Notes: generated from the letters alone by a model not told the origin. A DNA stretch of 64,000 bases from Verrucomicrobiia bacterium (GCA_011525685.1 WYBW01000049.1:40280-104279), one strand, 5' to 3'; numbered from the stretch's first letter, positions 5,708-48,859 are shown. Program-made: numbers and translations.

Positions 5708-5717
5708 TCATCACATT

Positions 5718-7169: not shown

Positions 7170-7279
7170 ACCGGAATCAAGCAGCCGTCTTCTTGAAGGG
7201 TTAAGAAACCGTCGTCGGGGATTTGGTTGTTGAGCAGAAATCCATCCCAGCGCGGCGGACGCCGCAAACACAGGTTTTA

Positions 7280-7373
7280 TGGAGTGCGGCGGGAAGCGAA
7301 GCGCCACGCCGCTTTTGGAAAAGGATGACCGGGGGAAAGCGGTGTCGCCGCTGCGCTCTGCCACCGCACTCCA
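7280..7373. repeat. Palindromic repeat element, family B (TGGAGTGCGGCGG ... CCACCGCACTCCA)
   Basis: A 94-bp element with near-perfect terminal inverted repeats. It lies in the intergenic region after the efflux operon. Confidence 0.7.
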
Positions 7374-7554
7374 AGTTTTTGGCGCGGTTCAACGAGTCTC
7401 AGCAACGACTGCTCTTGCGATTGCTCCCGGGCAAACTCCAAGAGTAATTGCGTCGCAAAAAGCGAATCGGACCGTCGGTCGTTCGTTGGTTTCATACAAC
7501 AAGAGGCTGCCAGATCGCGGACAAATAATCCGACCAAACCTGGCTCAAGTTTTT

Positions 7555-7800
7555 GTCCGTTCAACTTTTTAACCCAACCACCCTCCGGGGCCTAATCTCT
7601 GCAAGACAATTCAAAACAGGCTCTTACGGCATTTCAACCTCGTTGGCATGGCCACTGCAAAATGCCTGCTGATAGAAGCGAATAGTAGTTGATGACATGA
7701 ACACGAGCCAAAACAACTCAAGCATCCGATTCGTCGGCCAAGCCGATTTCGCGTCGGAAACCCTGCAAGTCGGACAAACCAGTTCTGGCGGTGTTCACGG
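7555..7800 (+). other. Duplicated copy of the window-start module (upstream box, sigma-54 promoter, leader hairpin, 5' end of the thioredoxin ORF)
   Basis: It aligns by eye to 1-245. GTCCGTTCAACTTwTTAACCC matches at 20/21 positions. TGGCATGGCCACTGCAAAATGCCTGCTGA is identical over 29/29 nt. The flanking and coding parts are about 70% identical. Homology ends just before the Trx active site. Confidence 0.8.
7644..7659 (+). promoter_or_regulatory. Candidate sigma-54 (-24/-12) promoter, second copy
   Basis: The 16-mer TGGCATGGCCACTGCA is identical to 90-105 and has the same spacing to the ATG at 7697. Confidence 0.6.
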
Positions 7801-8422
7801 CGAGCTACCCCCTATGACCATGAAACACACTATGACAACCACGCCTCAAACTCTAACCATTGACATCCTCACGGAAGACGGATCGCGCACGCGGTTCGTG
7901 CAGCCGGACGAGGCCAGCGCGAAAAGAACGTTGCGCCAGTTGGTGTCACCGCGGCTCTTTACTCCGCCCCTGCTTACGTTGGCTTCCGAGCACAGCACGA
8001 GCGCCATTCCCACCCGGACCATTGATGTCATCCTGGCCCACACGGCATCGCCGCCTCCGTTGCCGTTGCCCAGCGGGTGGGTGGATGCGGTTGAAGTCAC
8101 CGACGAGGCGTTGACGCCGCTTGAGACCCTGCGTGCGGCCGCCGCGGCGGAAGGCAGGCATGTGATGCTGGCGGAAGTTCATACACTGGGAGATTGGATG
8201 ATCCGCTTGAAGCTGGAAACCATCCTTCCGGCGACGATCCAGGAAGAGCGCCATCTTTGGAACCATTTTTTGGATTTACCTGCGATTCCGTTTCGTTTGC
8301 AGGCGGGCGGCCTGGGCGCCATCAATCCCGCGAATATCGTGCGCGCGACCGTTTGTCCGCCGGTTGACGGAGCCGCGGAGGCGGCGCTGTCGGCGGATTT
8401 GCTGGAAAGCCTTCGGCCCTGA
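7697..8422 (+). CDS. Uncharacterised protein A, paralog of the 10935-11615 product, with a chimeric 5' end derived from the thioredoxin gene
   Basis: The ORF is intact. Residues 1-33 (MNTSQNNSSIRFVGQADFASETLQVGQ) parallel the Trx N-terminus. An extra base near 7780 then shifts the frame relative to trx. The conserved paralog region starts near MTMKHTMTT (alternative starts at 7814, 7820 and 7832). Confidence 0.6.
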   Translation: MNTSQNNSSIRFVGQADFASETLQVGQTSSGGVHGELPPMTMKHTMTTTPQTLTIDILTEDGSRTRFVQPDEASAKRTLRQLVSPRLFTPPLLTLASEHSTSAIPTRTIDVILAHTASPPPLPLPSGWVDAVEVTDEALTPLETLRAAAAAEGRHVMLAEVHTLGDWMIRLKLETILPATIQEERHLWNHFLDLPAIPFRLQAGGLGAINPANIVRATVCPPVDGAAEAALSADLLESLRP

Positions 8423-8437
8423 AGCTGCGAGGCCAAC

Positions 8438-9097
8438 ATGAACGACATCATCGCTTTCACCATTGCCTACGGCGGATTGATCCTGTTCCTGGCCGGTTTC
8501 GCGGAGCAGAGTGGCCTGCCGTTTCCGGGATCGCTGGTCGTCATTGCGGGGGGCGCCCTCGCGGCGGGCGGGAAGTTTGATCTGCTGGCGGTCGTCGGCT
8601 GGACGGCCCTCGGCTGCATCACGGCCGACGCGATCTTGTTCGTTCTCGGAGGCCGCGGCCAGGCGCGCGTGTTCCGGGTGTTTCCCTATTTGCAAACGGT
8701 GCGGGTCAAGCTGGAGCGCGCCACACTCGCCCGGACCCTCCTGCACGGCCTGCGAATGCTCACGGTGGCGAAGTTTGTGCCCTTCGGCCAGGTCGTGGCG
8801 ATGCACGCCGGCGCGTTGCACGTGAGCCGGCGGCGCTTCCTGCTGGTGGATGCGTTCAGTGCGGTGGTTTACGCGGCGGTGTATGCCGCCTTGGGTTATG
8901 CGTTCCACGATCAATTGGAACAGGTCGTGGCCTTCCTGCACCAGCTCGGTACGGTCGCGTGGGTCGGTCTCGCGCTGCTTGCCGGAACCTACGGCGTTTA
9001 TCGTTTGCTCAAGCGCGGTCGCAAAACGGCGACCGCCAACCCCGACCATGCGGAGGAGTCCAAAGCCGAAGGAAACCTATGTCTTCCCTGTTCATAA
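8438..9097 (+). CDS. DedA/SNARE-associated family membrane protein
   Basis: The N-terminal motif FAEQSGLPFPGSLVVIAGGALA and multiple hydrophobic segments are typical of DedA. Confidence 0.85.
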   Translation: MNDIIAFTIAYGGLILFLAGFAEQSGLPFPGSLVVIAGGALAAGGKFDLLAVVGWTALGCITADAILFVLGGRGQARVFRVFPYLQTVRVKLERATLARTLLHGLRMLTVAKFVPFGQVVAMHAGALHVSRRRFLLVDAFSAVVYAAVYAALGYAFHDQLEQVVAFLHQLGTVAWVGLALLAGTYGVYRLLKRGRKTATANPDHAEESKAEGNLCLPCS

Positions 9098-9630
9098 TTT
9101 CCGCACTCTATGTTGGCGTTGTTTTTCTGTCAGGCTACGAACCTCATGACAGGGCGGATTTCGAATGTGTAACGCACTGATTCGGAGACAGCGGTATGAT
9201 CACACACCATCGAAACAACGGCCAGCAGTTCACAACGGAGCGGCGCTTGAACGTGCATCCATGGACGGAGGATTCTGAGCGACGCCGGCGCGACCATGGG
9301 AGCGACAGCGCCCCGCGCCGCCCGGGGTCCGGACGCCTGCATTGGGAGATGCTCCTGATCTGGGCCTTTGTGGTTTTCAGCTTTGCGGCGAGCTTCTTCT
9401 GCCTTTGGGCCATCTCCGCGAAATGCAATGGCGACTGGCCTCTCTGAGCTTCGCGGCGCCATTGGGAATCCTGAGTTAACCCTACCATGAATGTCCGAAG
9501 ATTCATCCCCAGGTCAGAAGCGAAGGCGAACCGACATTGTGGCCTCGCGTGCGGTCAGCGCAGCGAGCGTTGCCCTCTCAATCCGCTAATCGTCTAACCA
9601 GCACACCCAACGACTGAAAGGATTTCGTTG

Positions 9631-10047
9631 ATGTCATACTCCATAAATCCAGTTGGCGAAGACCGGTGCGTCTTCCTGTCCTACGAAGGCGAGGTGCCGG
9701 CCGTGGAGTTGTCCGCCGCCCGTTACGAGGCGGACGCCCTCTTGGACCAACGGCAATGGCACCGCCTCATCGTGGACGTCACGCAGTTGCAGTCAATGCC
9801 CCGGACGGCAGAACTGATTGACTTTGCCGGCGGGTTATCCGCGACCGTCTCCCGGGCCAGGCGGGTGGGACTGGTGGTCCGCCCCGAGCAGGACCGTCTG
9901 GCCCGGCTCATTCAAAAGGTCGCCCGCCGCGGGCGGTTGTTCCTCACCTCCTTTCTGGACCCGGCCAAGGCGATCCGTTGGGTGAAGCAATCCACACCCG
10001 CCAGGCAAAATTTGGGGAGCATCCGGAAGGAGCAACTGGCATCATGA
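9631..10047 (+). CDS. STAS/SpoIIAA-like domain protein
   Basis: The pattern is CVFLSYEGEVPAVEL...WHRLIVDVTQLQSMP...RVGLVVRPEQ...FLD. AAAGGA lies upstream of the ATG. The family assignment rests on pattern only. Confidence 0.6.
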   Translation: MSYSINPVGEDRCVFLSYEGEVPAVELSAARYEADALLDQRQWHRLIVDVTQLQSMPRTAELIDFAGGLSATVSRARRVGLVVRPEQDRLARLIQKVARRGRLFLTSFLDPAKAIRWVKQSTPARQNLGSIRKEQLAS

Positions 10048-35787: not shown

Positions 35788-36684
35788 GTGCAATTGAAAG
35801 TGACGGCCCATTGGAGTGGTGGTAGTGCTCGCGCTGCGAGCACTCCGCCCGCGCAGAGCGGGCGGAACGTCGCCGTCAGGGCAGCGCCGCCGCACGCACC
35901 GCCACGGCTCGCAGCGCAAGCCGTTCCACCCCAGCGACCACCACGTTCGATCTCACCAGCCAATCTCGCGAACATTGACTGTGCGACCAGTTCGGAGGTA
36001 AGCTTCGCCCATGCTCCACTCGACCGCGTCACCACCAGGGTGGACGCCGTGGGCACCACCACCTACGCCTGCACCGCCGGCGGGCAACTCTGGACGGAGG
36101 ATGGTCCGTTCAACAACGACACCGTGACGAACTCGTACACGTCCCGGTTGCGCACCGGCCTGGCGTTGCAACAACCCGCCGGCCTGTGGACCAACGGCTT
36201 TTGGTACGATTACGCCAATCGCCTCACCAACGTGACCTCACCCGCCGGAGTGTTCAGCTACCAGTTGGTGGGACAGGCGTCCCGCCTGTCCAAACTCACG
36301 CTCCCCAACACCAGCTACATCACGAACACCTACGACTCGGTGGCCCGCCTCACCGGCACGTGGCTCAAGAACAGCAGCCACACCACGCTCAACGCTCATC
36401 AACACACCTACAACTCCGGGAATCAGCGCACCAAACACACGCGCCCGGACAACAGCCATCTGACGTTCAGCTACGACCCCATCGGCCAGTTGACCATCGT
36501 GCGGGCGACCAACTCGGGCGGCACGCTCCTCACCGCCGCGACCAAGGGCTACGCCAACGACGCCGCCTGGAATCTCAATCGCCGCACCAACAACAGCAGC
36601 GGCTCGACGCACACGTTCAATGTTGCCCTCTTGCCGCATCATCCTTGCGCATGCCCAGGTCGCACGGCGCCCGGTTCAGGCTGA
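35788..36684 (+). pseudogene. Orphan RHS/YD-repeat fragment with no N-terminal domain, no RHS core end and no toxin tip
   Basis: YD-type repeats: GFWYDYANRLTNVTSP, TNTYDSVARLTG, TFSYDPIGQLT. The first ~70 codons are low-complexity Ala/Pro-rich with no credible start context. About 200 aa of repeats is far shorter than a functional RHS protein. Confidence 0.55.
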
Positions 36685-36728: not shown

Positions 36729-37415
36729 ATGAAACACGCGGGCAAAGCCCGGAAAGCCGCGCTCAAGATCCTCCTGCTGTCCCTGGCAGCGGTGCTGGCT
36801 CTCTTGCTGGTGGCCTGGCTGGCCCGGACGACGGCGGCGTTGGTCCCGGCTCTCACGGCGACTTTGGCGGTTTTGTGGGTCCTGTTCGCGGCCTTCACAA
36901 TCAACTTCTTCCGTGACCCGGAGGCCCGAGTGCCATCGGGCAAGGGTTTGGTGGTGTCCCCCGCGCATGGCACGGTGGACGTGGTGGATGAAACGACCGA
37001 GAACGAGTTCATGGGCGGCCGCTGCAAACGCATTTCCATCTTCCTGTCGGTCTTGGACGTTCACGTGCAGAACGCGCCCGTCAGCGGCAAGCTGGTGTTT
37101 CACAAACATCAAGACGGCCAGTATCTGAGCGCCACCCGGACCGATTGCGGCTCGTTCAATGAAAATGTCCTGCTCGGCATCGTCCCATCGGAGTTTCCGC
37201 AAAAGAAAATTGGCATCCGTCTGATCGCGGGATTGATCGCGCGGCGCATCGTCGTCTGGGCGGCGGCGGGCGAGGAGGTGGCGCAGGGGGAACGCATCAG
37301 CCTGGTGCAATTCGGCTCGCGCGGTGACGTTTACCTGCCGCTGGACGCCAAGCTCGAGTGCAAGCTGGGCGACAAAGTGGTCGGTGGGGAAACCGTGATT
37401 GCCACCCTCTCGTAA
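36729..37415 (+). CDS. psd: Phosphatidylserine decarboxylase (short, membrane-anchored type)
   Basis: SIFLSVLDVHVQNAPVSG and the self-cleavage region VQFGSRGD. It is followed by pssA. Confidence 0.85.
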   Translation: MKHAGKARKAALKILLLSLAAVLALLLVAWLARTTAALVPALTATLAVLWVLFAAFTINFFRDPEARVPSGKGLVVSPAHGTVDVVDETTENEFMGGRCKRISIFLSVLDVHVQNAPVSGKLVFHKHQDGQYLSATRTDCGSFNENVLLGIVPSEFPQKKIGIRLIAGLIARRIVVWAAAGEEVAQGERISLVQFGSRGDVYLPLDAKLECKLGDKVVGGETVIATLS

Positions 37416-37425
37416 GGTTCAGCCC

Positions 37426-38292
37426 ATGAGCGCCAATCCTTCGCCGACGCCACCCAATTCCGGGGCGAACGGGGACGCCCGGCTGCGGATTTACTTTCTG
37501 CCGAACCTGCTCACCGCGGGCAACCTGTTCTGCGGTTTTGTGGCGTTGACGAAGATCGTGGAAGCGGACCTGTCGCGCGGTTTCGTGGACATCCGCGTGG
37601 CCTTGGGCTTCATCCTGCTGGCCTGCATTTTTGATTTGTTCGACGGACGGGTGGCGCGGATGGGCGGCGTGGAAAGCCCCTTCGGCCGGGAGTTCGACTC
37701 GTTGGCGGACCTGATCTCCTTCGGGGTGGCGCCGGCGTTTCTGGTTTACAAGGTGGTGCTGGCGGACGTGTTCAGCAGTCATCCCCAGGTAGGTTGGTTC
37801 ATTGCCTCGGCCTACCTGCTGTGCGGCGCGTTCCGGTTGGCGCGCTTCAACTGTCTCTCGGTCATGTCCGGCGGCGGCGGCAGCAAGGAGTTTCTCGGGT
37901 TCCCGATTCCTTCGGCCGCGGGTTTGGTGGCGTCGCTCACGCTGCTGGTGATTCACCTCAACGAGAACGAGCGCACCCTGGGCGCGTGGAAATACCTGCC
38001 GGCCATCGTGCTGGTCTTCCTCTCCGCGATGATGGTCAGCACGGTGCGTTATCCGAGTTTCAAGTCGCTGGGTCTGCGCTCGACCAGCACGTTCATCAAG
38101 GCGATTGGCGCGGCATTGTTCGTGGGCTGCCTGCTCATTCTGCGCGAGAAGATTTTGTATTACGTGCTGCCGGCGTTCTTCACCCTTTATCTGATCTACG
38201 GCTTCGTGCGACCCCGCATTTCGCGGGCGTTGCGCCGCGAGATCGAGGAGGAGGACGACGAGGAGGAGAACGAGCCGGCGCCCCCCGCTTGA
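37426..38292 (+). CDS. pssA: CDP-diacylglycerol--serine O-phosphatidyltransferase
   Basis: CDP-alcohol phosphatidyltransferase motif DGRVAR-x8-G-x3-D-x3-D (DLFDGRVARMGGVESPFGREFDSLADL). An alternative start is at 37399. Confidence 0.85.
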   Translation: MSANPSPTPPNSGANGDARLRIYFLPNLLTAGNLFCGFVALTKIVEADLSRGFVDIRVALGFILLACIFDLFDGRVARMGGVESPFGREFDSLADLISFGVAPAFLVYKVVLADVFSSHPQVGWFIASAYLLCGAFRLARFNCLSVMSGGGGSKEFLGFPIPSAAGLVASLTLLVIHLNENERTLGAWKYLPAIVLVFLSAMMVSTVRYPSFKSLGLRSTSTFIKAIGAALFVGCLLILREKILYYVLPAFFTLYLIYGFVRPRISRALRREIEEEDDEEENEPAPPA

Positions 38293-38296
38293 GCGC

Positions 38297-38986
38297 ATGT
38301 TGGACCTGCCGCCCATGGTTCTCGCCGGGTTGACCGGTTTCATCAGCGGCGTGCTGCTCTGCATCCCGGTCGGCCCGGTCAACTTCACGATCATCAACGA
38401 GGGCGCCCGGCGGGGTTTCAAGTGGGCGCTCCTGATCGGCGCGGGGGCGACCACGATGGAGATCATCTATTGCGGCATCGCGTTCACCGGCTTCGCCGCG
38501 TTCTTCCAGAAAGGCTGGATCAAGGCCTCGATGGAAGTGTTCAGTTTCCTGTTCCTGATGTTTCTCGGCGTCAAGTTTCTGGTTGCCAAGACCGTCACCG
38601 CGCCGCTGCACCTGGGCCGCGCCGCCGACCGCATCGAGGAGCGCATCGAGGAAAAGCTGCACCCGCACTCGGCATTCATGACCGGCTTTGTGCGGACGCT
38701 GGCCAATCCGGGGGTGCTGCTGGGCTGGATCATTCTGGGCGCCAATTTCATCTCGCGCGGCTGGGTGGAGCCGACTTGGAACGGCAAACTCGCCTGCCTG
38801 AGCGGCGTGGCGACGGGGATTGCCCTGTGGTTCTTTGGATTGAGCTGGGCGATTTCACTGGGCCACAAAAAGATCACCGAGCCGACGATTTTGAAAATGG
38901 AACGCGGTTCGGGCGTGGTGCTGCTGGTCCTGGGTCTGGCCCACGGCGCCCACATTGCCTGGCAATTGGCGAAGCTTCGGATGTGA
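38297..38986 (+). CDS. LysE/RhtB-family amino-acid exporter
   Basis: Six hydrophobic segments and the N-terminal IPVGPVNFTIINEG motif region typical of LysE translocators. Confidence 0.75.
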   Translation: MLDLPPMVLAGLTGFISGVLLCIPVGPVNFTIINEGARRGFKWALLIGAGATTMEIIYCGIAFTGFAAFFQKGWIKASMEVFSFLFLMFLGVKFLVAKTVTAPLHLGRAADRIEERIEEKLHPHSAFMTGFVRTLANPGVLLGWIILGANFISRGWVEPTWNGKLACLSGVATGIALWFFGLSWAISLGHKKITEPTILKMERGSGVVLLVLGLAHGAHIAWQLAKLRM

Positions 38987-39014: not shown

Positions 39015-39632
39015 TCACGTTTTCGGGGGTTCAGACCGAAAGCGACCGCCAAGGGCCTTCTGCCACCGGCGAAGCACACCGACCACGACCGCGTCGGCGC
39101 GACGGTGAAACACACCGACCACGGAATCCCCGCGCGCGAGCGACAGCTTGAGGCTCCACACGAAGACCGTGAGGAACACCAGTTTGTTCTGCCAGCCGTC
39201 CAGCCGCCATTGGTCCTTCCAGATCCACATCGGGTCCTTGTCAAACGGACCGAAATAGAAAATGGGCCAGAGGTCCTCGGGTGACGGTCCGCGCGAGCCG
39301 ATGAAATCGCAGAAGAGATGCAGATGGAAGACGAGGAGCACGAGAATCGCCACGCGCCACCGTTGTCTTGCAAAGAGCGTGAGCAGCAGCGTGATCGCCA
39401 TCGCGCCGAAAGCGCCGTGCAGTAGGTAATGATGATACTGATGGTAGAAGTGAGTCTGTCTGCCGCCCAGCACCGGGCCGAGGATGTCGAGGACAAGCCC
39501 CAACCCGTCCACGTCAGGCAGGATGCCCGCCAGCGCGACGAGCCGGCAATCGCGCGGATTGTCGGTCGCCTTCGCGGCGATCACCCAACTGGTGAACAAA
39601 TGAGTCAGAGGCGACACGGGCTTTGAATCCAA
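39015..39632 (-). CDS. Membrane-bound metal-dependent hydrolase family protein (DUF457/YdjM-like)
   Basis: PLTHLFTSW near the N-terminus, His-rich loops (HFYHQYHHYLLHG, HLHLFCD) and several TM segments. Confidence 0.6.
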   Translation of the reverse strand: MDSKPVSPLTHLFTSWVIAAKATDNPRDCRLVALAGILPDVDGLGLVLDILGPVLGGRQTHFYHQYHHYLLHGAFGAMAITLLLTLFARQRWRVAILVLLVFHLHLFCDFIGSRGPSPEDLWPIFYFGPFDKDPMWIWKDQWRLDGWQNKLVFLTVFVWSLKLSLARGDSVVGVFHRRADAVVVGVLRRWQKALGGRFRSEPPKT

Positions 39633-39711: not shown

Positions 39712-39845
39712 GTAGCGCAGGATTCCATCCTGCTGGATCGCGGGTTTCCAACCGGCGAACCGTTGCCAGCGGCGGCGTTTGCGTGCGTTGGGTCGGTCTG
39801 CCGAGTGGAATTCGGCGATACGGCAGGTTGGGATGACTGCGCTAC
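39712..39845. repeat. Palindromic repeat element, family A, intergenic copy
   Basis: GTAGCGCAGGATTCCATCCTGCTG ... GCCGAGTGGAATTCGGCGATACGGCAGGTTGGGATGACTGCGCTAC. Confidence 0.65.
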
Positions 39846-39917
39846 CAACCAGCAGTTGCGGCGACTGGGTGGTTGCGTCCAGATGCGCTAAACATCGCGT
39901 TCGCACGGCGCTCGAGT

Positions 39918-40688
39918 TCACTTTCTCCGCAGGTCCGCCAGGAAGGGCAGTCCCTCGCGATACTTGCGCAGAGTTGCCAGATCGAGTTCCGCCCGGATGA
40001 CCCCTTCGCGGTCGCCCGCGTCCGTGATGATCTCGCCCTGGGGATCAATGATCAGCGAGCGTCCGGGATAGGCATAAAACGGATCGCTGCCGACGCGGTT
40101 GACACCCACCACATAGGCCTGGTTTTCGATGGCGCGGGCTTGCAGCAGGCGAACCCAGTGATGAATCCGCTTCTCCGGCCAGTTGGCGATCACGGTAAAA
40201 AGCTCGGGCTGATACGTCGCCGCCACCTCGCGAAAACTCTCCGGAAAGCGCAGATCGTAACAAACGAACGGCGACACCTGGCAGTCAATCCACCGGAAGG
40301 CCGTGGGCTGTTCCCCCGCCGTGTAATGGTCGGTTTCGCCACCCGGTGTGAAGGGATGCATTTTGGTATAAGTCCCGATCAATTCTCCTGCGGGTGAAAA
40401 TGCCAGCGCCTGGTTTCGCGCCCGGCCGTCGTGACCGCGCCTGGCCGCGCCGGCGATCAGGAATACGCCAAAGGCTATGGCGGTGTTGGCGAGAAATTGC
40501 TGCGTCGGCCCCTCGCCAAGCTCGGCGATGGTGTCCACATTCATGCTGAAGCCGGTGGCGAACATTTCCGGCAGAACGACGAGCGAATCTCTGGGCGGCT
40601 TGGCTTGCGCGATCAATCCGCGCACTTTCTCGAAGTTCGCCGGCTTGTTTTCCCAAGCAATGTCGAACTGAAGGGCAATGACGTTCAC
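39918..40688 (-). CDS. Carbon-nitrogen hydrolase (nitrilase superfamily)
   Basis: Catalytic-triad contexts LVVLPEMF (Glu), YTKMHPF (Lys) and FVCYDLRFPE (Cys). Confidence 0.85.
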   Translation of the reverse strand: MNVIALQFDIAWENKPANFEKVRGLIAQAKPPRDSLVVLPEMFATGFSMNVDTIAELGEGPTQQFLANTAIAFGVFLIAGAARRGHDGRARNQALAFSPAGELIGTYTKMHPFTPGGETDHYTAGEQPTAFRWIDCQVSPFVCYDLRFPESFREVAATYQPELFTVIANWPEKRIHHWVRLLQARAIENQAYVVGVNRVGSDPFYAYPGRSLIIDPQGEIITDAGDREGVIRAELDLATLRKYREGLPFLADLRRK

Positions 40689-40843
40689 GCGCCGAGGTTA
40701 GTTCGAGAGCCGGGCGGAGACGAGTTGGAAAAGGGGCAGTGGCTGTGACTCCGCAAGCCTCACACACGTGTTGAGAGATGCTCCAACGTGAGCGTCGGAA
40801 GCCGCAGGCTTGCACCTGGTTTTGCAAGTGGTACGCTCCGCGC

Positions 40844-41863
40844 ATGGAAGCCGCCGACTGGGTCAACTTGAGCGACGAGGAGTTGCTGGAGAAGCGCATC
40901 TCCCAGCTTGGCCTCCGGCTGGAAGGCAAGGAACTCCAACCGCTCGTGCAGCGGCTCTATGACGAGTTGACGCAAAAGGGCCTGATCTTTCATCCACCCT
41001 GCCACCTGGGCGACGAGTGGTTCGTGCCGGTGGGCGTGCCGGCCATTTTCATCCCGTTTTTTCTCGCGCACGAGCGGTTGCGGAAGCTCGAGCGCAAGAT
41101 GATGCTCGAGGTTGAGGGGGAAACGCCCGAGTGGTTCATGAAATTGATCCGGCACGAGGCGGCCCACGCTTATTTTTACGCCTTTCAGTTGCAGAAGAAG
41201 ACCAAGTGGCGGCGCATCTTTGGCGCGACGTCGGCGGAGGAAACGCCGCAGTTCTACCGTCCGCGCCCCTACAGCCGTTCGTTCGTGGTGCATCTGGACG
41301 ACTGGTACGCGCAGAGCCACCCCGATGAGGATTTCGCCGAGACGTTCGCCATCTGGCTGACGCCGGACCTGAACTGGCGGGAACGCTACCAGGGATGGAA
41401 GGCGCTGCAAAAACTGGAATACGTGGACGAACTGATGCGCTCGCTGGCCGGCAAGCCGCCGCTCCACCAGCCACCCTACCGCGTCGGCGACCACGACTGC
41501 CTCAACGTCAAACTCAAGACCTATTACCAGCGCAAGCGGAAACTCTACGAGGATTCGTATCCGGACTTTTACGACAATGACCTCCGGCAGTTGTTCGCCG
41601 CCGGTCCGGATGTGGAGGGCCGCGTGAAAGCGTCGGCCTATCTGCGGCATCACCGGCGGCAGTTGCGGGACGCCGTCTGCCAGTGGACCAACGAGAAGAA
41701 GTATCGCGTGAACAAACTGCTGACGCGGTTGATTGACCGCTGCGATCAACTGGATCTGCATCTCAAGGCTTACGATCCGCGGCAGAACCTGCAGGTCTCG
41801 GCCTATGTCACCACGCTGGTGATGAATTACCTGTTCACCGGCAAGTTCAAGCGGACCAAGTGA
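40844..41863 (+). CDS. Putative zinc-binding metallopeptidase (HExxH)
   Basis: The motif LIRHEAAHAYFY (HEAAH), followed by SHPDEDFAETFAIWL. The start is taken at MEAADW (40844). Confidence 0.6.
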   Translation: MEAADWVNLSDEELLEKRISQLGLRLEGKELQPLVQRLYDELTQKGLIFHPPCHLGDEWFVPVGVPAIFIPFFLAHERLRKLERKMMLEVEGETPEWFMKLIRHEAAHAYFYAFQLQKKTKWRRIFGATSAEETPQFYRPRPYSRSFVVHLDDWYAQSHPDEDFAETFAIWLTPDLNWRERYQGWKALQKLEYVDELMRSLAGKPPLHQPPYRVGDHDCLNVKLKTYYQRKRKLYEDSYPDFYDNDLRQLFAAGPDVEGRVKASAYLRHHRRQLRDAVCQWTNEKKYRVNKLLTRLIDRCDQLDLHLKAYDPRQNLQVSAYVTTLVMNYLFTGKFKRTK

Positions 41864-42888
41864 GGCTTGTGAAACGCAAACTCAAAATCCTTGCCCTGTT
41901 CGACGCGGTCGCGCCCACGACCCTCGACCAGGACCTGAGCGCCGAGCTCCAGACCGAGGATTGGAAAACCGAGGCGAGCGTGCTCAAGGCCCTTGGTGAA
42001 TTGGGTCACGCGACCGGGCATCTCGCGATCTTCGACGACCTCGATCTCTTGCGGCAGAAGTTGCAGCAGTTCGAGCCCGAGGTGATTTTCAACCTGGCCG
42101 ACCAGTTCAAGAACAACCGCGCCTTCGACCAGAACATCGTCTCCTATCTGGAATTGCACGGCGTGCCGTTCACCGGCTGCGGCTCCACCGGACTGACGCT
42201 CTGCAAGCAGAAGGGCATTTCAAAGAAAATCCTGGGCTACCATCGGATTCACGTCCCGGAGTTCACGGTGATTCCCCGCGGACGGCGCAGCGCGCGGCCC
42301 AAACGGCTCAAGTTCCCCATCGTGGTGAAACCGCTCAAGGAGGAGGCGTCCTACGGCATTTCCCAGGCCTCGTTCGTCGAGTCGGACGAGCAACTGAAGG
42401 AGCGCGTGCAGTTCATTCACGAGAAGTACGACAACGATGTGATCGCCGAGGAATACATCGAGGGGCGGGAGCTTTACGTGAGCCTTCTCGGCTATCATCG
42501 TCTGCAGGTCTTTCCCATTCGCGAGCTGGTCTTCAAGGAAGTCCCGCCCGACGAACCGAAGCTGGCCACCTACAAAGCGAAGTGGGACGAGGAATATCGC
42601 AAACGCTGGGGGTTGCAGAACCGGTTTGCCGAAGGGCTTGATCCCGCGGTCGTGCGCAAGATCGAGCAGACCTGCAAACGCATCTACCGGCTGCTGACGA
42701 TTGATGGTTACGCGCGCCTGGACCTGCGACTGACGGCCAACAACGAAATCTATTTCATCGAAGCCAATCCCAATCCGGCGCTCGCTCCCGACGAGGACTT
42801 CGCGCAGTCAGCCCTCCAGGCCGGCCTCCCTTACCCGCAGTTGATGGATCGCATCGTGCGGCTGGGGTTGAAGAGCGTGAGGGATTGA
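41860..42888 (+). CDS. ATP-grasp ligase (D-alanine--D-alanine ligase-like family)
   Basis: FPIVVKPLKEEASYGIS, IAEEYIEGRELYVSLLG and ARLDLRLTANNEIYFIEANPNP. The GTG start overlaps the peptidase stop (GTGA). Confidence 0.8.
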   Translation: MRLVKRKLKILALFDAVAPTTLDQDLSAELQTEDWKTEASVLKALGELGHATGHLAIFDDLDLLRQKLQQFEPEVIFNLADQFKNNRAFDQNIVSYLELHGVPFTGCGSTGLTLCKQKGISKKILGYHRIHVPEFTVIPRGRRSARPKRLKFPIVVKPLKEEASYGISQASFVESDEQLKERVQFIHEKYDNDVIAEEYIEGRELYVSLLGYHRLQVFPIRELVFKEVPPDEPKLATYKAKWDEEYRKRWGLQNRFAEGLDPAVVRKIEQTCKRIYRLLTIDGYARLDLRLTANNEIYFIEANPNPALAPDEDFAQSALQAGLPYPQLMDRIVRLGLKSVRD

Positions 42889-43492
42889 AGTCCCTCCGGC
42901 ACCGCCCAGCTCGGCTTGTAAAGAAACCTCCGGGAGCGATTCCGCCGCCGGCTGTTTCAGTCTCTCGAACTCCACCTTGTACACCTGGTGATTGGTGCCT
43001 ATGATCCGGTCCCACAGATTGAAATACAGGCCGTAGTTATGGCGCACGTAACGGTGGTGCATGTCGTGGTGCGTCGTGGTGTTGTGCCAGCGGGTCAGCC
43101 AGTGTTTTGCAAACCCGCGCGGCAGAATCTCCAATCCGCAATGCCCCACCACGTTCATCACCGTCATGTAGGTCAGCTCGCCCAGCAACAGGTAACGAAA
43201 GAGATGATCCGTGTAGGAAGCGCTGAACATCTTCCAGAGCGGCAGGCGGGCAATGTCCATCGCGGTCCGCATCACGGACAGGCCGTGCTCATCCCTTGGG
43301 CCGGCGGCCAACCCCCCAGATCAACCAGATCGCCAGCGCGACCAACAGCACCAGCCACCAAAGGTAACGCAACTCGCGCGCGGCGCGCTCGACGAACCCG
43401 AATGCGCTCGGGAACAGCAGCAGCAGCCCCGCCAGCACCGCCAGCAGCACCAGCAACTGGCAGCCGGCCTTCGCGCGCGGATGCAGGCTCAC
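42808..43492 (-). pseudogene. Fatty-acid hydroxylase/sterol desaturase-superfamily gene split by a frameshift in a homopolymer
   Basis: The downstream ORF ends with THHDMHHRYVRHNYGLYFNLWDRIIGT, the last His box of the family. The upstream 67-aa ORF encodes the TM N-terminus. The frames meet at a C6 run (43312-43317), and removing one base joins them. The first two His-box positions appear non-canonical. Confidence 0.5.
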
Positions 43493-44373
43493 GGCTCCGG
43501 GGTGTTCGCCGCCGGACCGAGCGGCAGCAGCAGACCGGCGCCCGGGTTATGGGGGTCGGACGGGACCACCAGCGGCGATTTCCCATTCCAGCGCTCGACG
43601 ATTTGCAGACGGAGAAATGCCGGATTCAGCTTTAATGCGTCACCGCGCACCCGGATGGCCTCGGCCTCGCCGCGCGCGCGGATGACCGCCGTCTCCGCTT
43701 CCACCTGCGTTTGCATTTGGGTGAAGCGCGCCTGGGCAGCCTGCTGCTCCGCCACCATTTTCGCCTCGATGGCCCGCTCGAGTTCCGCCGAGAGGTCAAT
43801 GTTGCGGATGACAATGTCCTCGACCCACAGGATGGCGCCGATCTTCTGTTTGGAGGCCGCGAGCGCCTGTTGTTTGATTTCCTCGCGTTCTTTGACGATC
43901 TGCTCGGCGGTCCGCAACGCCGTGACTTCCTTGATGGCTTCCTGGACGCGCGGCGCGATGAGGCTGTCGAAGGGATTGCCGGCGTATTGCCGGAAAATCT
44001 GCACGACCGAATCCTCCGGGATGCGATAAAGCACGCGCAATTCCACCGTCACCTGTTGAAGGTCCGAGGAGAAGCAGTCAGCCTTCACGCTCTCGGTTTT
44101 TTGCCGCACATCCACCGGCACGATGGTGGTGATGAAGGGAGACTTGAGGCCGAAGCCCTCGGGCAGGAACTGGTCCGCCGCCTTGCCGAGCGTGACCTTG
44201 ATGCCGCGCTGCCCGGGCTCGACCACGTAGGTCGTGGTCGAGGCCACGATGACGAGCACGAACACGAGCACGCCCGCGCCAATGAATTTGGCCAGGGCGG
44301 CGCGGCTCAGGTCACTGACGGGCAGTGCTCCGCCGCTGAACGGCGGGCGCGGATTGCGAGGAGGGGTTGGCAT
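43489..44373 (-). CDS. SPFH/band-7 (prohibitin-like) membrane protein, paralog 1
   Basis: N-terminal TM segment, an SPFH core (VEPGQRGIKVTLGK...LQQVTVELRVLYRI) and a coiled-coil AEQQAAQARF region. Confidence 0.85.
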   Translation of the reverse strand: MPTPPRNPRPPFSGGALPVSDLSRAALAKFIGAGVLVFVLVIVASTTTYVVEPGQRGIKVTLGKAADQFLPEGFGLKSPFITTIVPVDVRQKTESVKADCFSSDLQQVTVELRVLYRIPEDSVVQIFRQYAGNPFDSLIAPRVQEAIKEVTALRTAEQIVKEREEIKQQALAASKQKIGAILWVEDIVIRNIDLSAELERAIEAKMVAEQQAAQARFTQMQTQVEAETAVIRARGEAEAIRVRGDALKLNPAFLRLQIVERWNGKSPLVVPSDPHNPGAGLLLPLGPAANTPEP

Positions 44374-45184
44374 GTTCTCTTTGTTGGCGCAGGCGTTCCA
44401 GGTCCTGCATGGTCAGCACAAAATTGTCACCGCCGCCGACCACCAGGGGGGTCAGTCCGTCCCACTTGTCCACGATCTGCAATTCAATGTAGGTGGGATT
44501 TTCCTTCAACGCGTCACCCCGGATGCGGATGGACTCGGCTTCCCCTTTGGCTTTGATCACCGCCGTGTCGGCTTCGATTTGCGCGCGTTGTTGCAGAAAC
44601 TTCGACTTCGCCGCTTCCTGCTCCTGGACCATTTTGGCCTCGATGGCCTGCTCCAGTTCCTTGGTCAGGGCGATGTTCTGAATGACGATGTCCTCGACGA
44701 CCAACAACTCGCCGATCTTCCGGCGGGCCAGCTCGAGCGCGCGGGTCTTGATCTGCTCGCGATTCTTGACCACCTGCTCGGCGCTCTGGGTCGCGGTGGC
44801 TTCCTTGATGGCTTCATGCACCCGGGGGGAGACCAGATTCGCAAACGGGTCGCCATAATACTCCTGAAACAGCTTCACCACCGAGCTTTCCGGGATGCGA
44901 AACAGCACGCGCAGGTCCACCTGAATCTGTTGGAGGTCGGAGGAATAACATTCCGCCTTGTCCTCCTGGGTTTGTTGTCTGACGGAGAAGGCATGAATCG
45001 TGGTGATGAATGGCGCCTTGAAACCGAACCCCTCCGGTTTGAACGCGGGGGAAACTTTGCCCAGCGTCACCTGCACCCCGCGAAAACCGGGATGAATCAC
45101 GTAGGTTCCTGACGACGCCATGATCACCACCACGAAGATCAAAATGGCGATGCCAATCAGGCGGCTGATGTTTTGTGGATTCAT
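44312..45184 (-). CDS. SPFH/band-7 (prohibitin-like) membrane protein, paralog 2
   Basis: Same architecture. About half of the residues are identical to paralog 1 by eye. Confidence 0.85.
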   Translation of the reverse strand: MNPQNISRLIGIAILIFVVVIMASSGTYVIHPGFRGVQVTLGKVSPAFKPEGFGFKAPFITTIHAFSVRQQTQEDKAECYSSDLQQIQVDLRVLFRIPESSVVKLFQEYYGDPFANLVSPRVHEAIKEATATQSAEQVVKNREQIKTRALELARRKIGELLVVEDIVIQNIALTKELEQAIEAKMVQEQEAAKSKFLQQRAQIEADTAVIKAKGEAESIRIRGDALKENPTYIELQIVDKWDGLTPLVVGGGDNFVLTMQDLERLRQQREHANPSSQSAPAVQRRSTARQ

Positions 45185-45305: not shown

Positions 45306-48158
45306 TCAGTGGCCGGTATCCAATGCGTGAATTGCCTGGCGCAGGCGGCGCTCGACGTGCTTCTGGCGCTCCGGCGCAAGAATTTTCCCACCGCCCACTT
45401 CCTGCACGTAAAGACTGTCAATGGCCGCGCCTTTCTCGGTGCAGATGCGCGCCGTCGAGATGTCCAACTGCAACTCCGTCAGCGTCTGCGCGATGGTGTA
45501 GAGCAGGCCGATGCGGTCCTCGGTTTCGATCTCAATCAGGGTGCGCGTCTCTGAGGCGTCGTTGTCCACAATGATGTGAGTGGGAATCCGTTCGCCGGAA
45601 TAGGCCTGGTAGAGCGGGCGAGAAAGGTTTCGGCGCGCGATCAACTCGTGGAGGTCCACGGTTTCGCCGGTCAGCACCCGCGCCAGCAACTGCTCGAACG
45701 CATCGCGTTGCGCGGGTGTGGCCGGCGTGCCGGCCACGGCGTCGGTGGCGAGGAACGTATCGAGCACGATGCCGTCGCTGCGGGTGAAGATTTCGGCGCT
45801 GAGAATGTTCAGTCCGGTGGCGCTGAGTGAGCCGGCGATTTTGCCGAACAGCCCCGCGCGATCCCAGGTGCAAACCTGCACGGCGCTGCAACCGCGATCC
45901 GGCTCGTTGCGCAAATTGATCACGGGCGCCAGCGCGCTTTCCTCCGACAGGATTTGCAGGCGCATGAAGCGATGGGCCAGGATGAGATCATCGTGAATCT
46001 CCCGCACGGTCCGGGCCTGGAAATAGCGCGGCGGCAGCGAGGCAACGTGCGCGTGGATTTCCTCGTCGTCCAGTTCGGGCGGCAGCAGGGCGCGAACCTC
46101 CTCCATGAGCGACTCGCGTTGTTTCTCGCCGGCGCGCACGAATTCCGTGGCCCCGGTGAGCAGGGGCATCGCCCGAAAATGCAGTTCCCAGAGCAGCGAG
46201 TCCTTGAAGCCGTTCCACAGTTCGTCGCTGGTGGCCCGGGCGTCCACGAACGTATGCAGGGTCAGCAGCACCAGCGCCTCGGCGGTCTGTATTTGCCGGG
46301 CAAACTGGCGGATGACGGCGGGATCATCCAGGTCGCGGCGTTGCGAAACGCTGGCCATGAGCAGGTGGTGACGGATGATCAACTGCAAGGTCTCCACCGC
46401 GGGCGCGTCCAGACCCAGGCGCCGTCCGACGCGCGCCGCCAGCCGCGCACCGGACTCGGAATGATTGCCGCGCCCGTCGGATTTGCCGGTGTCGTGCAGC
46501 AGCAGGGCCAGGTAGAGCAGCGACGGACGATCCAGACCCTGGAACAGCGGCGCGTATTTGAGGTAAGGCGCCTCCTTGGCTTCCCAGATGCGGTCCAGTT
46601 GCTCCACGCAGACCAGCGTGTGTTCATCCGCGGCGTACTGATGATAAAACTCGTGCTGCACCATGGCGGTCAGTCGGCCGAATTCCGGGAGGTATTTGCC
46701 CAGAAAATCCACTTCATGCATGGCGCGCAAGATCGGCGCCACGCTGCCCCGCTGGTTGAGGATGGTCAAAAACGTCTCCCGCACGTGCTCGTCCGCGAGA
46801 AAACTGCGATCCACGAGCGTAAGCTGATTGCGAATGAGTTGCGCCAGGTCCGGGTGCAGGCGCAGGCCGCGCTGTTGGGCGTGCAGGAAGACGCGCATCA
46901 ACCGGCGCGGCTGATCGCGAAAGACCCGGTTGGACGTGGCGTGGATTTCGCCCTCGAGAAACTTGAAACCATCCACCGGCTCGGTCACGGGCGGGCGGCC
47001 CTTGGGCAGAAACCGGCGCAGGGACAGCCTGCCCGCGGGCTGGGGCAGGAGAGCCAGGCGCTGCTCGAGGGTGCGGGTGATCAGGAAGATGCTGCGGGAA
47101 TGAAGGTACACCTCGCGCATGAAGCGCTCGATGCGCTTGCTGGGCGAGCGTTCGGTGTAGCCGAGATTGTGCGCGACAGCCGGCTGTAGATTCTTGGTCA
47201 GCGCATCGTGCTGGCGATTGACGTGATAATGCAGTTCGTTGCGCACGCGCAGCAGAAAATCGTAGGCCGTCTCGAGTTGCTTGCGCTCGCGGTCGCTTAC
47301 GAACTCGCGTTGCTGGAGATCGGCCAGCGAGCGGGTCCGGTATTTGAAGAACGCCATCCAGAGCAGGTTTTGAAAATCGCGCAAACCGCCGCAGCCATTC
47401 TTGATGTTCGGCTCCTGCATGAACGGCGAATTGCCGAACTTGGCCCGGCGCGTCGCCTGGTCCTCCACGCGCGCGGCGATGTAACGGGTTTCGTGCCCCT
47501 CCACGCAGCGGGCCACCACGGTCTTCTGGAAGCGCGCAAAGAGTTTCTCGTTGCCCACAATCAGTCGCGCCTCGATCAGCGACGTCTTGGTTTCGATGCT
47601 CCGCGGATCGGACTTGTCGTTGGCCATGGCGACACACTCGGCGATGGTGCGCACCGAGTGGCCGGGCTTGAGTCCCAGATCGAACAACGGCAGCCATACC
47701 CCGTCCATCACCTTCTCCAGCAGCGGCAGCGCGCGGGTTTGATTCGCCGCCACCTGACCTTCATGCAGGAACATCAGGTCAATGTCGCTGTGCGGATTCA
47801 ACTCCCGCCGGCCATAGCCGCCGAGGGCCACGACGGCGATGGGCGGGAACTCCCGGCGCGCCTGGTCCGAGAGCGCGTTCAACGCTGCCTCCCACAGATG
47901 TCGGATGAGATGATCGAGCAGGGCCGCGCGCGCCTGACAGATCACGATGCCGCCGGCGCCGTTCCGATGCGCCAGCTTGAGCCGGTGCGTTTCGACCTTG
48001 AGGAAACCCTGAAACCGCGCGCGTTCCTGATCAAAGACGCGGCCCGGCGGCAGCGGCAATCGCGCCGCGGCCGCCGCCTCGATCTTGTGCAACAGGTCCT
48101 GCATGGGCGCAAACAGGGTGCGGACAACGCGCGCGTGAAGCAAGCGAGGGCTGGCCAT
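45306..48158 (-). CDS. glnD: Bifunctional [protein-PII] uridylyltransferase/uridylyl-removing enzyme
   Basis: Nucleotidyltransferase motif GGYGRRELNPHSDIDLMFL, HD domain LLLHDTGKS, and two C-terminal ACT domains. The start is taken at MASPRLL (48158). The longer track ORF overlaps the sigma-factor gene. Confidence 0.9.
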   Translation of the reverse strand: MASPRLLHARVVRTLFAPMQDLLHKIEAAAAARLPLPPGRVFDQERARFQGFLKVETHRLKLAHRNGAGGIVICQARAALLDHLIRHLWEAALNALSDQARREFPPIAVVALGGYGRRELNPHSDIDLMFLHEGQVAANQTRALPLLEKVMDGVWLPLFDLGLKPGHSVRTIAECVAMANDKSDPRSIETKTSLIEARLIVGNEKLFARFQKTVVARCVEGHETRYIAARVEDQATRRAKFGNSPFMQEPNIKNGCGGLRDFQNLLWMAFFKYRTRSLADLQQREFVSDRERKQLETAYDFLLRVRNELHYHVNRQHDALTKNLQPAVAHNLGYTERSPSKRIERFMREVYLHSRSIFLITRTLEQRLALLPQPAGRLSLRRFLPKGRPPVTEPVDGFKFLEGEIHATSNRVFRDQPRRLMRVFLHAQQRGLRLHPDLAQLIRNQLTLVDRSFLADEHVRETFLTILNQRGSVAPILRAMHEVDFLGKYLPEFGRLTAMVQHEFYHQYAADEHTLVCVEQLDRIWEAKEAPYLKYAPLFQGLDRPSLLYLALLLHDTGKSDGRGNHSESGARLAARVGRRLGLDAPAVETLQLIIRHHLLMASVSQRRDLDDPAVIRQFARQIQTAEALVLLTLHTFVDARATSDELWNGFKDSLLWELHFRAMPLLTGATEFVRAGEKQRESLMEEVRALLPPELDDEEIHAHVASLPPRYFQARTVREIHDDLILAHRFMRLQILSEESALAPVINLRNEPDRGCSAVQVCTWDRAGLFGKIAGSLSATGLNILSAEIFTRSDGIVLDTFLATDAVAGTPATPAQRDAFEQLLARVLTGETVDLHELIARRNLSRPLYQAYSGERIPTHIIVDNDASETRTLIEIETEDRIGLLYTIAQTLTELQLDISTARICTEKGAAIDSLYVQEVGGGKILAPERQKHVERRLRQAIHALDTGH

Positions 48159-48197
48159 TGCGCGCAACCTTGTGCCGATTCCCTTGTTCAATAGACT

Positions 48198-48815
48198 TTG
48201 GCCGCGATGCCCGCCCATCCCGATCCCGACGCCGCCCTGATGCTCCGCGTGAAACAGGGCGACACGGCGGCTTTCACCCGATTGGTGGAAAAGTATCAGC
48301 AGCCGGTGATCAACCTGGCCTATCGCACCCTGCACGACCTCACCGAGGCGGAGGACCTGGCCCAGAACGTGTTCGTGCAGGTTTACAAATCCGCCCGCCG
48401 CTATCAGGCCTCGGCCAAGTTCTCCACCTGGCTCTTCACCATCACCCGCAACCTGTGCCTCAACGAAATCCGCCGCCGTTCCCGTCACCCGGCGGATTCC
48501 CTGGATCAGCCGCACCCGGATGCCGAGGAACAACCGCTGCACCAATTCGAAGACAAGGCCACGGCCGCGCCCCCGGAGCAACTCTTGCACGGCGAGCTGG
48601 AGGAAAAGATCGCGCGGGCGCTCACGGAATTGCCGGAAACCCAGCGCACCGCGCTGGTGCTCTGCCGCCAGGAAGACCTCAGTTACGAGGAAATCTCCGC
48701 CATTCTCGGTTGTTCTCTTTCTGCCACGAAATCGCTGATTCACCGCGGCCGGGAAACGCTCAAACTCAAACTCAAGCCCTACCTGAAAACGGGCGAGTGG
48801 GAGAGGGAGGAATGA
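48198..48815 (+). CDS. ECF (sigma-70 group 4) RNA polymerase sigma factor
   Basis: Region 2 (AEDLAQNVFVQVY, FSTWLFTITRNLCLNEIRRR) and region 4 (LPETQRTALVLCRQEDLSYEEISAILGCSLSATKSLIHRGR). Confidence 0.9.
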   Translation: MAAMPAHPDPDAALMLRVKQGDTAAFTRLVEKYQQPVINLAYRTLHDLTEAEDLAQNVFVQVYKSARRYQASAKFSTWLFTITRNLCLNEIRRRSRHPADSLDQPHPDAEEQPLHQFEDKATAAPPEQLLHGELEEKIARALTELPETQRTALVLCRQEDLSYEEISAILGCSLSATKSLIHRGRETLKLKLKPYLKTGEWEREE

Positions 48816-48859
48816 AGGCAACTTTCCCCGCCCGGCGGTGATTAACCCAGAGGTGACTT

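Follow-up and report, generated by a model that had tools for sequence, protein, structure and literature searches.

The 64,000-nucleotide stretch of DNA from a Verrucomicrobiia bacterium analysed here (GCA_011525685.1 WYBW01000049.1:40280-104279, referred to as the window) carries a gene for a cytoplasmic zinc metallopeptidase of the family PF15887 (Peptidase_Mx; 40844-41863, + strand, 339 amino acids (aa)), followed by a gene for an ATP-grasp ligase of the Ddl clade (for D-alanine-D-alanine ligase; 41869-42888, + strand). We found that these two genes are an ancient two-gene cassette, co-transcribed and with a fixed order. The ligase is predicted to be active with a product other than D-Ala-D-Ala, and tentatively the two enzymes may run a cycle of addition and removal on one shared peptide or protein.

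Conservation of the peptidase-ligase pair

Homologues of the peptidase are numerous (> 7,400) and mostly exactly 339 aa long. From a search giving 2,157 clusters at 50% identity, 27 diverse orthologues (33-51% identity) were aligned, and this alignment was used to scan GTDB with one genome per species. The 80 best loci were analysed; three were cut too short to judge, so that 77 were informative, and junctions were counted over 72. In 71 of the 77 informative loci, the ligase gene comes next after the peptidase gene on the same strand, and in one further locus (L035) a single gene, isocitrate dehydrogenase-like by eye, lies between the two. The labels of the pair loci cover at least 12 phylum-level lineages, including Verrucomicrobiota, Planctomycetota, Acidobacteriota, Nitrospirota, Myxococcota and Bdellovibrionota, and further Gemmatimonadota, Gamma- and Alphaproteobacteria, Lentisphaerota, Kiritimatiellia, Binatia and Methylomirabilota.

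The two genes overlap or are at most 22 nucleotides (nt) apart at 62/72 junctions. A 4-nt ATGA/GTGA overlap is present at 28/72 junctions, these outside Verrucomicrobiota, overlaps of 1 or 8 nt at 4/72 and spacers of 0-22 nt at 30/72. When the identities to the window proteins are compared locus by locus, peptidase and ligase agree closely (Pearson r = 0.98), with mean identities outside the phylum of 45.8% and 45.4% for the two proteins. Since both genes show almost equal identities at each locus, the pair has travelled and evolved as a unit. Adjacency of peptidase and ligase far beyond chance is strongly supported. The initial annotation of this DNA had linked the two genes functionally and had proposed co-occurrence across genomes as a check; the high rate of adjacency, the order, strand and near-zero spacing kept in all these lineages and the equal rates of divergence bear this link out.

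Two loci in this set were peculiar. The pair at L013, labelled Candidatus Dormiibacterota, is 72-74% identical to the window proteins, far above any other non-verrucomicrobial locus, which suggests a mis-binned contig. At L025 (114-2140), from a verrucomicrobial metagenome-assembled genome, peptidase and ligase are both split into several frames, representing either a pseudogenised pair or assembly errors.

In the window, the open reading frame (ORF) of the peptidase, which had already been recognised by its HEAAH motif (41153-41167), ends with the TGA at 41861-41863. It could be extended upstream to an ATG at 40778, a start for which there is no support; ATG 40844 is the start, because about 100 homologues among the matches listed have exactly 339 aa. 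The ATP-grasp ORF follows on the same strand, again as described earlier, and ends at 42888 (PF07478, Dala_Dala_lig_C, E 6.5e-30). Its start could be either of two GTG codons at the junction (41860-41871). GTG 41869 gives 339 aa and a 5-nt spacer. GTG 41860 gives 342 aa and shares GTGA with the peptidase stop in a 4-nt overlap; gene callers pick this codon in near-identical contigs, and the initial annotation had done the same. The GTGA is indeed present at 41860 and the tight juxtaposition is real, but the relatives favour GTG 41869 as the start. Nearly all verrucomicrobial ligase homologues have 339 aa and not 342, and their starts, 1-12 nt past the peptidase stop, align with GTG 41869 (VKRKLK). 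Therefore, GTG 41860, which lies within AAG-TGA, is probably incidental, produced where the last Lys codon meets the stop, and the junction is likely a 5-nt spacer rather than a 4-nt overlap.

The ATP-grasp ligase

The best sequence match of the ligase in the PDB is DdlA of P. aeruginosa (7e-21). Its AlphaFold2 (AF2) model has a predicted local distance difference test score (pLDDT) of 86.9, and the top 50 Foldseek matches in the PDB are all Ddl or Van enzymes, with template modelling (TM) scores of 0.68-0.77 at 17-24% identity. We mapped the residues of the ligase by aligning 72 family members with E. coli DdlB. The equivalents of DdlB K97, K144, E180, E187, K215, R255, D257, E270 and N272 are 99-100% conserved and all present in the window ligase. 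Among them, the stretch R286-L-D288 to E301-A-N303-P-N-P (42715-42777, + strand) holds the catalytic Arg and the Mg2+ ligands (DdlB R255, D257, E270 and N272), all of them 100% conserved. Because the residues for ATP, Mg and catalysis are conserved to this degree, the ligase is predicted to be an active acyl-phosphate-forming enzyme.

The substrate pockets are different. At K241-W242 (42580-42585, + strand), the equivalent of DdlB K215-Y216, the Lys is kept in 100% of the 72 members and the Tyr is replaced by Trp in 97%. DdlB S281-L282, which form the D-Ala2 carboxylate site, are replaced by E312-D313 (42793-42798, + strand; E in 83%, D in 85%), and the equivalent of S150 is Ala in the ligase family. 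The DdlB E15 column is occupied by the poorly conserved L30, in an N-terminal part where the alignment is uncertain. In the HGxxGEDG segment, the equivalents of H63 and E68 differ and no conserved match was aligned. According to the predicted model, about 17 residues connect the first strand to the first helix, and a family-specific WKTE motif with an invariant E38 sits in this first predicted helix. The NCBIfam models for Ddl and Van all score far below their cutoffs (PRK01372, 120.6 vs 243; TIGR01205, 114.9 vs 245.65).

Because the D-Ala1 and D-Ala2 pockets are rebuilt, the ligase appears to be Ddl-like in its chemistry without being a functional member of the Ddl family, and its product is predicted not to be D-Ala-D-Ala. 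The initial annotation had raised the case of an ordinary Ddl paralogue; the replaced D-Ala site residues and the low scores with the Ddl models speak against it. The acidic E312-D313 suggests that the nucleophile may be cationic or may lack a free carboxylate at this position.

Compared with the Ddl and Van ligases, the enzyme shares the three-domain ATP-grasp fold with the same ATP, Mg and catalytic residues, and like the Van ligases it is paired with a zinc hydrolase. A function in the cell wall may come to mind, in which a specialised Ddl paralogue and its peptidase remodel or recycle peptidoglycan stem peptides, similar to VanA-VanX or in murein-peptide recycling. This would agree with the fold and best matches of the ligase (Ddl, VanA and VanG), with the public annotation as a D-alanine-D-alanine ligase and with the NlpC/P60 genes found downstream of the pair in 4 of 68 loci. 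We consider it quite improbable, since the residues of the D-Ala1 and D-Ala2 sites (Y216, S281, L282 and S150 in DdlB) are not conserved and all Ddl/Van models remain far below their curated cutoffs. Moreover, neither protein of the pair carries an export signal, neither the window nor the 80 loci showed a mur/dcw/fts or vanRSH context, and the partner is not an M15 dipeptidase of the VanX type; in its place stands a zincin resembling anthrax lethal factor (LF), with a basic domain of 140 aa. The public label of this ligase is probably wrong.

The zinc metallopeptidase

The window peptidase scores 28.7 bits with PF15887, which is marginal against the gathering cutoff of 27; many of its orthologues carry a precomputed PF15887 match. 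The zinc-binding and catalytic motif HEAAH (H104, E105 and H108; 41153-41167, + strand) follows R103, and all of these residues are invariant in the 27 orthologues. Further downstream, YAQSHPDEDFAE (41306-41341, + strand) forms a helix with the pattern Y155-x6-E162-x3-E166, where the putative catalytic Tyr and the third zinc ligand are located; Y155, H159, P160, E162, D163 and E166 are likewise invariant in this set. In a profile search, this motif (YAqsHPdEDFAE) aligns with YAGSKPSEDIAE of 4l7a. Sequence searches of the PDB with the peptidase, as a single sequence or as a profile, gave noise and the weak 4l7a match only.

The AF2 model of the peptidase (pLDDT 87.7) has few neighbours in the PDB. 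Foldseek returned only 4l7a, the founder of PF15887 (E 0.03), PPEP-1/Zmp1, PPEP-3 and LF, and the M34-type matches to LF and PPEP-1 are weak (E 0.24-9, TM 0.16-0.36). In LF, PPEP-1 and 4l7a, as in the window peptidase, the HExxH helix is followed by Tyr-x6-Glu-x3-Glu on a later helix. The Tyr-to-Glu spacing of 7 is the same as that of Y178/E185 in PPEP-1 and Y728/E735 in LF, and titles of PDB entries name E143 and Y178 of PPEP-1 as mutated catalytic residues. We read the peptidase as an LF-like zincin, in which Glu162 would be the third zinc ligand and Tyr155 would stabilise the transition state. Membership in M34 or M90 is not established.

LF, PPEP-1 and 4l7a are secreted toxins, enzymes cleaving surface proteins or lipoproteins, whereas the window peptidase is cytoplasmic, is paired with a ligase and carries a unique C-terminal domain. 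No signal peptide or transmembrane segment was found in the peptidase; its N-terminus is acidic and the maximum of the Kyte-Doolittle 19-residue window is 1.44. The C-terminal domain (41444-41860, + strand) is all-helical, with DSSP helices from 187 to 332, and strongly basic. It belongs to no known family, and no Pfam or PDB relative of it was found. The C-terminal part, about 140 residues or the last 41% of the protein, has an isoelectric point (pI) of 9.2-11.2 in 25 of the 27 orthologues; for the catalytic half it is usually in the acidic or neutral range. Because of this pI, the basic domain points to a polyanionic partner.

A possible cycle on a shared polypeptide

By analogy with known pairs of ligases and hydrolases, we tentatively favour a cytoplasmic cycle in which ligase and peptidase share one substrate, a peptide or protein, and which we hold to be slightly less likely than not. 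We infer here that both enzymes act on one substrate, that it is a polypeptide and in which direction each step runs. In such a cycle, the ligase would turn a carboxylate into an acyl-phosphate and couple this to an amine. On a conserved cytoplasmic polypeptide, it would attach at least one residue to an amine or to a carboxylate, either C-terminal or in a side chain. By way of its basic C-terminal domain, the zincin would dock on an acidic partner and, once docked, would remove the added residues or expose the acceptor end. A polypeptide is favoured as the substrate because the only fold relatives of the peptidase cleave polypeptides, because the peptidase has a large domain of a docking type and because the pair shows a conservation like that of housekeeping genes. 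In addition, the gene for the target need not be linked, as is the case for RimK and rpsF. A narrower version, in which the pair is a widespread bacterial post-translational writer and eraser with a conserved cytoplasmic protein as target, for instance a component of the translation apparatus, is rather unlikely; in it, the ligase would put an amino acid or amine on the target, and the docked zincin would take it off or make the site ready.

The experimentally established precedent for adjacent ligase and protease genes is RimK-RimB (with RimA), which acts in the polyglutamylation of ribosomal protein S6. The protease RimB trims what the ATP-grasp ligase RimK adds and also stimulates RimK (PMC11957791). 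In both systems, the gene of a cytoplasmic ATP-grasp amidoligase is found beside that of a dedicated protease and the pair is conserved. That the protease trims the product of the ligase and modulates it, and that the target is encoded elsewhere, is proposed for the window pair by analogy. The two systems differ in that the ligase described here is of the Ddl and not the RimK clade and its protease is an HExxH zincin and not a retropepsin; in addition, E312-D313 would be unexpected for the addition of glutamate.

In eukaryotes, the ATP-grasp tubulin tyrosine ligase (TTL) adds a C-terminal residue to tubulin and the HExxH-type metallopeptidase MATCAP removes a C-terminal residue. The genes of TTL and MATCAP are unlinked, and no sequence or fold match of either protein of the pair to them was found.

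The two enzymes could instead serve a small-molecule amide cycle, where the product of the ligase is a dipeptide-like or acyl-amine metabolite, turned over by the zincin as its dedicated amidase. Such a product might be an amide of a cationic amine (a polyamine, Lys or Orn, for example) with an amino acid or a thiol peptide. We regard this as somewhat unlikely, and as a serious alternative nonetheless. The nearest relatives of the ligase in sequence and fold are all small-molecule Ddl enzymes, and E312-D313 in place of the carboxylate-binding S281/L282 would favour a nucleophile with positive charge. The variable neighbourhoods of the pair agree as well, since a universal metabolite does not require linked genes for its biosynthesis. 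A pairing of synthetase and amidase is also known (PMC2427367). The glutathionylspermidine/trypanothione synthetase-amidases keep an ATP-grasp synthetase and a hydrolase for the same amide together, and differ from the pair in being a fused polypeptide with a CHAP cysteine amidase and another ATP-grasp clade. On the other side, the fold neighbours of the peptidase are endo- or oligopeptidases such as LF and PPEP-1, with no amidases or dipeptidases among them, the large basic extra domain suggests a macromolecular partner, and no transporter or regulator is conserved beside the pair.

Several points weigh against the polypeptide cycle that we favour. Characterised enzymes of the Ddl clade are known to act mainly on small molecules. 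That ligase and peptidase touch the same molecule is, as said, something we infer. E312-D313 in the nucleophile site argues against the addition of acidic residues, so that a target with an acidic tail, as modelled from the basic peptidase domain, fits awkwardly with this site. The fold matches of the peptidase are weak overall (E 0.03-1, TM about 0.2-0.36), and kinship with the M90 peptidase MtfA was rejected, as an hhalign comparison with E. coli MtfA covered only 20 columns at HExxH with a probability of 0.8%. Finally, the ligase is absent within 2-6 kb of the peptidase in 5 of the 77 informative loci, all from Acidobacteriota (L043, L047, L048, L063 and L069).

An apparent ligase at L063 was rejected as a spurious low-complexity ORF. 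In several of these five loci, the upstream neighbour is an ORF of about 750 aa on the opposite strand.

Significance of the pair

Both superfamilies are known, and the pairing of a ligase with a hydrolase is a known design (RimK-RimB, VanA-VanX, GspS, TTL with carboxypeptidases). What seems new is that, in more than ten phyla, a PF15887 zincin with a unique basic domain is combined with a ligase of the Ddl clade whose pockets are rebuilt. No description of this pairing was found in full-text literature searches; an earlier mention in the amidoligase survey of Iyer et al. 2009 is possible. The pair spans from Verrucomicrobiota to Nitrospirota, Planctomycetota, Acidobacteriota and the predatory Bdellovibrionota, and conserved two-enzyme cassettes of such breadth without an assigned function are uncommon.

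In thousands of genomes and metagenomes the ligase is labelled as D-alanine-D-alanine ligase and its partner as hypothetical. The identity of the substrate would reveal a new modification cycle of proteins or peptides in environmentally dominant phyla, or a new widespread metabolite, and would also correct reconstructions of the peptidoglycan pathway in which the ligase gene is counted as ddl. If the reading as a writer and eraser is true, the pair would correspond, in mostly uncultured or little-studied bacterial phyla, to RimK-RimB or to the tyrosination cycle of tubulin. As two soluble enzymes of about 340 aa each, the pair is directly testable.

Gene neighbourhood

All-against-all clustering of the ORFs from the 80 loci revealed no third conserved gene. 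When 68 downstream and 72 upstream neighbours were scanned with Pfam, the families were scattered and unrelated, and none was common; the most frequent were HhH-GPD (5), the downstream NlpC/P60 genes already mentioned (4) and TonB receptors (4, in the upstream scan). The scans of flanking genes showed no transporter, regulator or biosynthetic partner conserved beside the pair. A search with PADLOC gave no match to a defence system, and no plasmid homologue of the pair was found.

ATP-grasp ligases and proteases together are the core of graspetide clusters (PMC8939145). The pair might by this token be a natural-product cassette for a ribosomally synthesised and post-translationally modified peptide (RiPP), in which an ATP-grasp maturase and a leader peptidase would process a ribosomally made precursor. 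Such a role is highly improbable. In the 80 loci, small ORFs of 18-90 aa within 600 nt of the pair, on either side, show no conservation except among close relatives, and no transporter is conserved nearby. The ligase is of the Ddl clade and not of the graspetide/RimK clade, and the housekeeping-like conservation, with about 45% identity between phyla and co-divergence of the two genes, is unlike that of biosynthetic clusters.

Upstream of the peptidase, a C-N hydrolase of 256 aa is encoded on the opposite strand (39918-40688, - strand; PF00795, E 1.1e-41). As noted in the initial annotation, it is transcribed divergently about 155 bp away with an intact triad, which we located at E41 (codon 40566-40568), K109 (40362-40364) and C143 (40260-40262) in the usual contexts LPE, K and CYDLRFPE. 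The gap to the peptidase, counted from ATG 40844, is 155 nt (40689-40843) and is presumed to contain the promoter region of the pair. A promoter and terminator scan of this region was uninformative and gave no sigma-70-like site or terminator, and Rfam gave no sign of a riboswitch or leader RNA, with no match at E <= 1 across 39800-43400. The best NCBIfam model of the hydrolase is PRK10438, a YafV-type amidohydrolase (175 bits vs a cutoff of 249). By sequence, it looks like an ordinary Nit protein of the YafV/omega-amidase type.

The same annotation had combined ligase, zinc peptidase and C-N hydrolase into one system of three enzymes which make and trim a single product. The divergent layout at 155 nt in the window, repeated in L001 and in near-identical contigs, would fit such a system; the wider comparison does not. 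A homologue of the window hydrolase adjoins the pair in only 1 of the 80 loci, namely L001, the closest relative (83% peptidase identity), a C-N hydrolase of any kind stands next upstream in only 2 of 72, and the other Verrucomicrobiota (L002-L022) also lack an adjacent one. Given in addition that the best model of the hydrolase is a housekeeping amidohydrolase, a three-enzyme system is extremely doubtful. Because it is adjacent only in the closest relative, the hydrolase is a local chance neighbour outside the conserved module and not a component of the system. A small peptide or a storage polymer as the product, likewise suggested in the initial annotation, would be speculative; no precursor ORF and no partner for biosynthesis or transport is conserved beside the pair.

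At L085 (Binatia; 5327-10030), genes for an AMP-binding enzyme and a family-2 glycosyltransferase flank the pair. The stops and starts of all four genes overlap, so that they may represent a lineage-specific extended operon.

Other features of the locus

Downstream of the pair, an ORF of 167 aa with a TTG start (42808-43311, - strand) has its match to PF04116 (FA_hydroxylase) confined to the C-terminal half of the family (profile positions 64-132). It runs convergently into the 3' end of the ATP-grasp gene, overlapping it with its last 27 or so codons (42808-42888), and it may be a truncated remnant or have a mis-called end. Two tandem paralogous ORFs of 294 and 290 aa (43489-45184, - strand) are SPFH/prohibitin-like by eye and overlap by about 60 nt at their called starts and stops. 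At 45306-48821 (- strand), an ORF of 1171 aa resembles GlnD (PII uridylyltransferase); roughly the first 230 residues of the ORF as called seem to be an over-extension and to lie before the real start.

On the other side of the C-N hydrolase, an ORF fragment at 35788-36684 (+ strand) is RHS/YD-repeat-like, with repeats of the YDxxGRL type, as judged from its translation only. Two overlapping ORFs (36729-37415 and 37399-38292, + strand) resemble, again by translation only, a pair of phosphatidylserine decarboxylase and phosphatidylserine synthase. They are followed by a LysE-family exporter (38297-38986, + strand) and a YdjM-family membrane protein (39015-39632, - strand).

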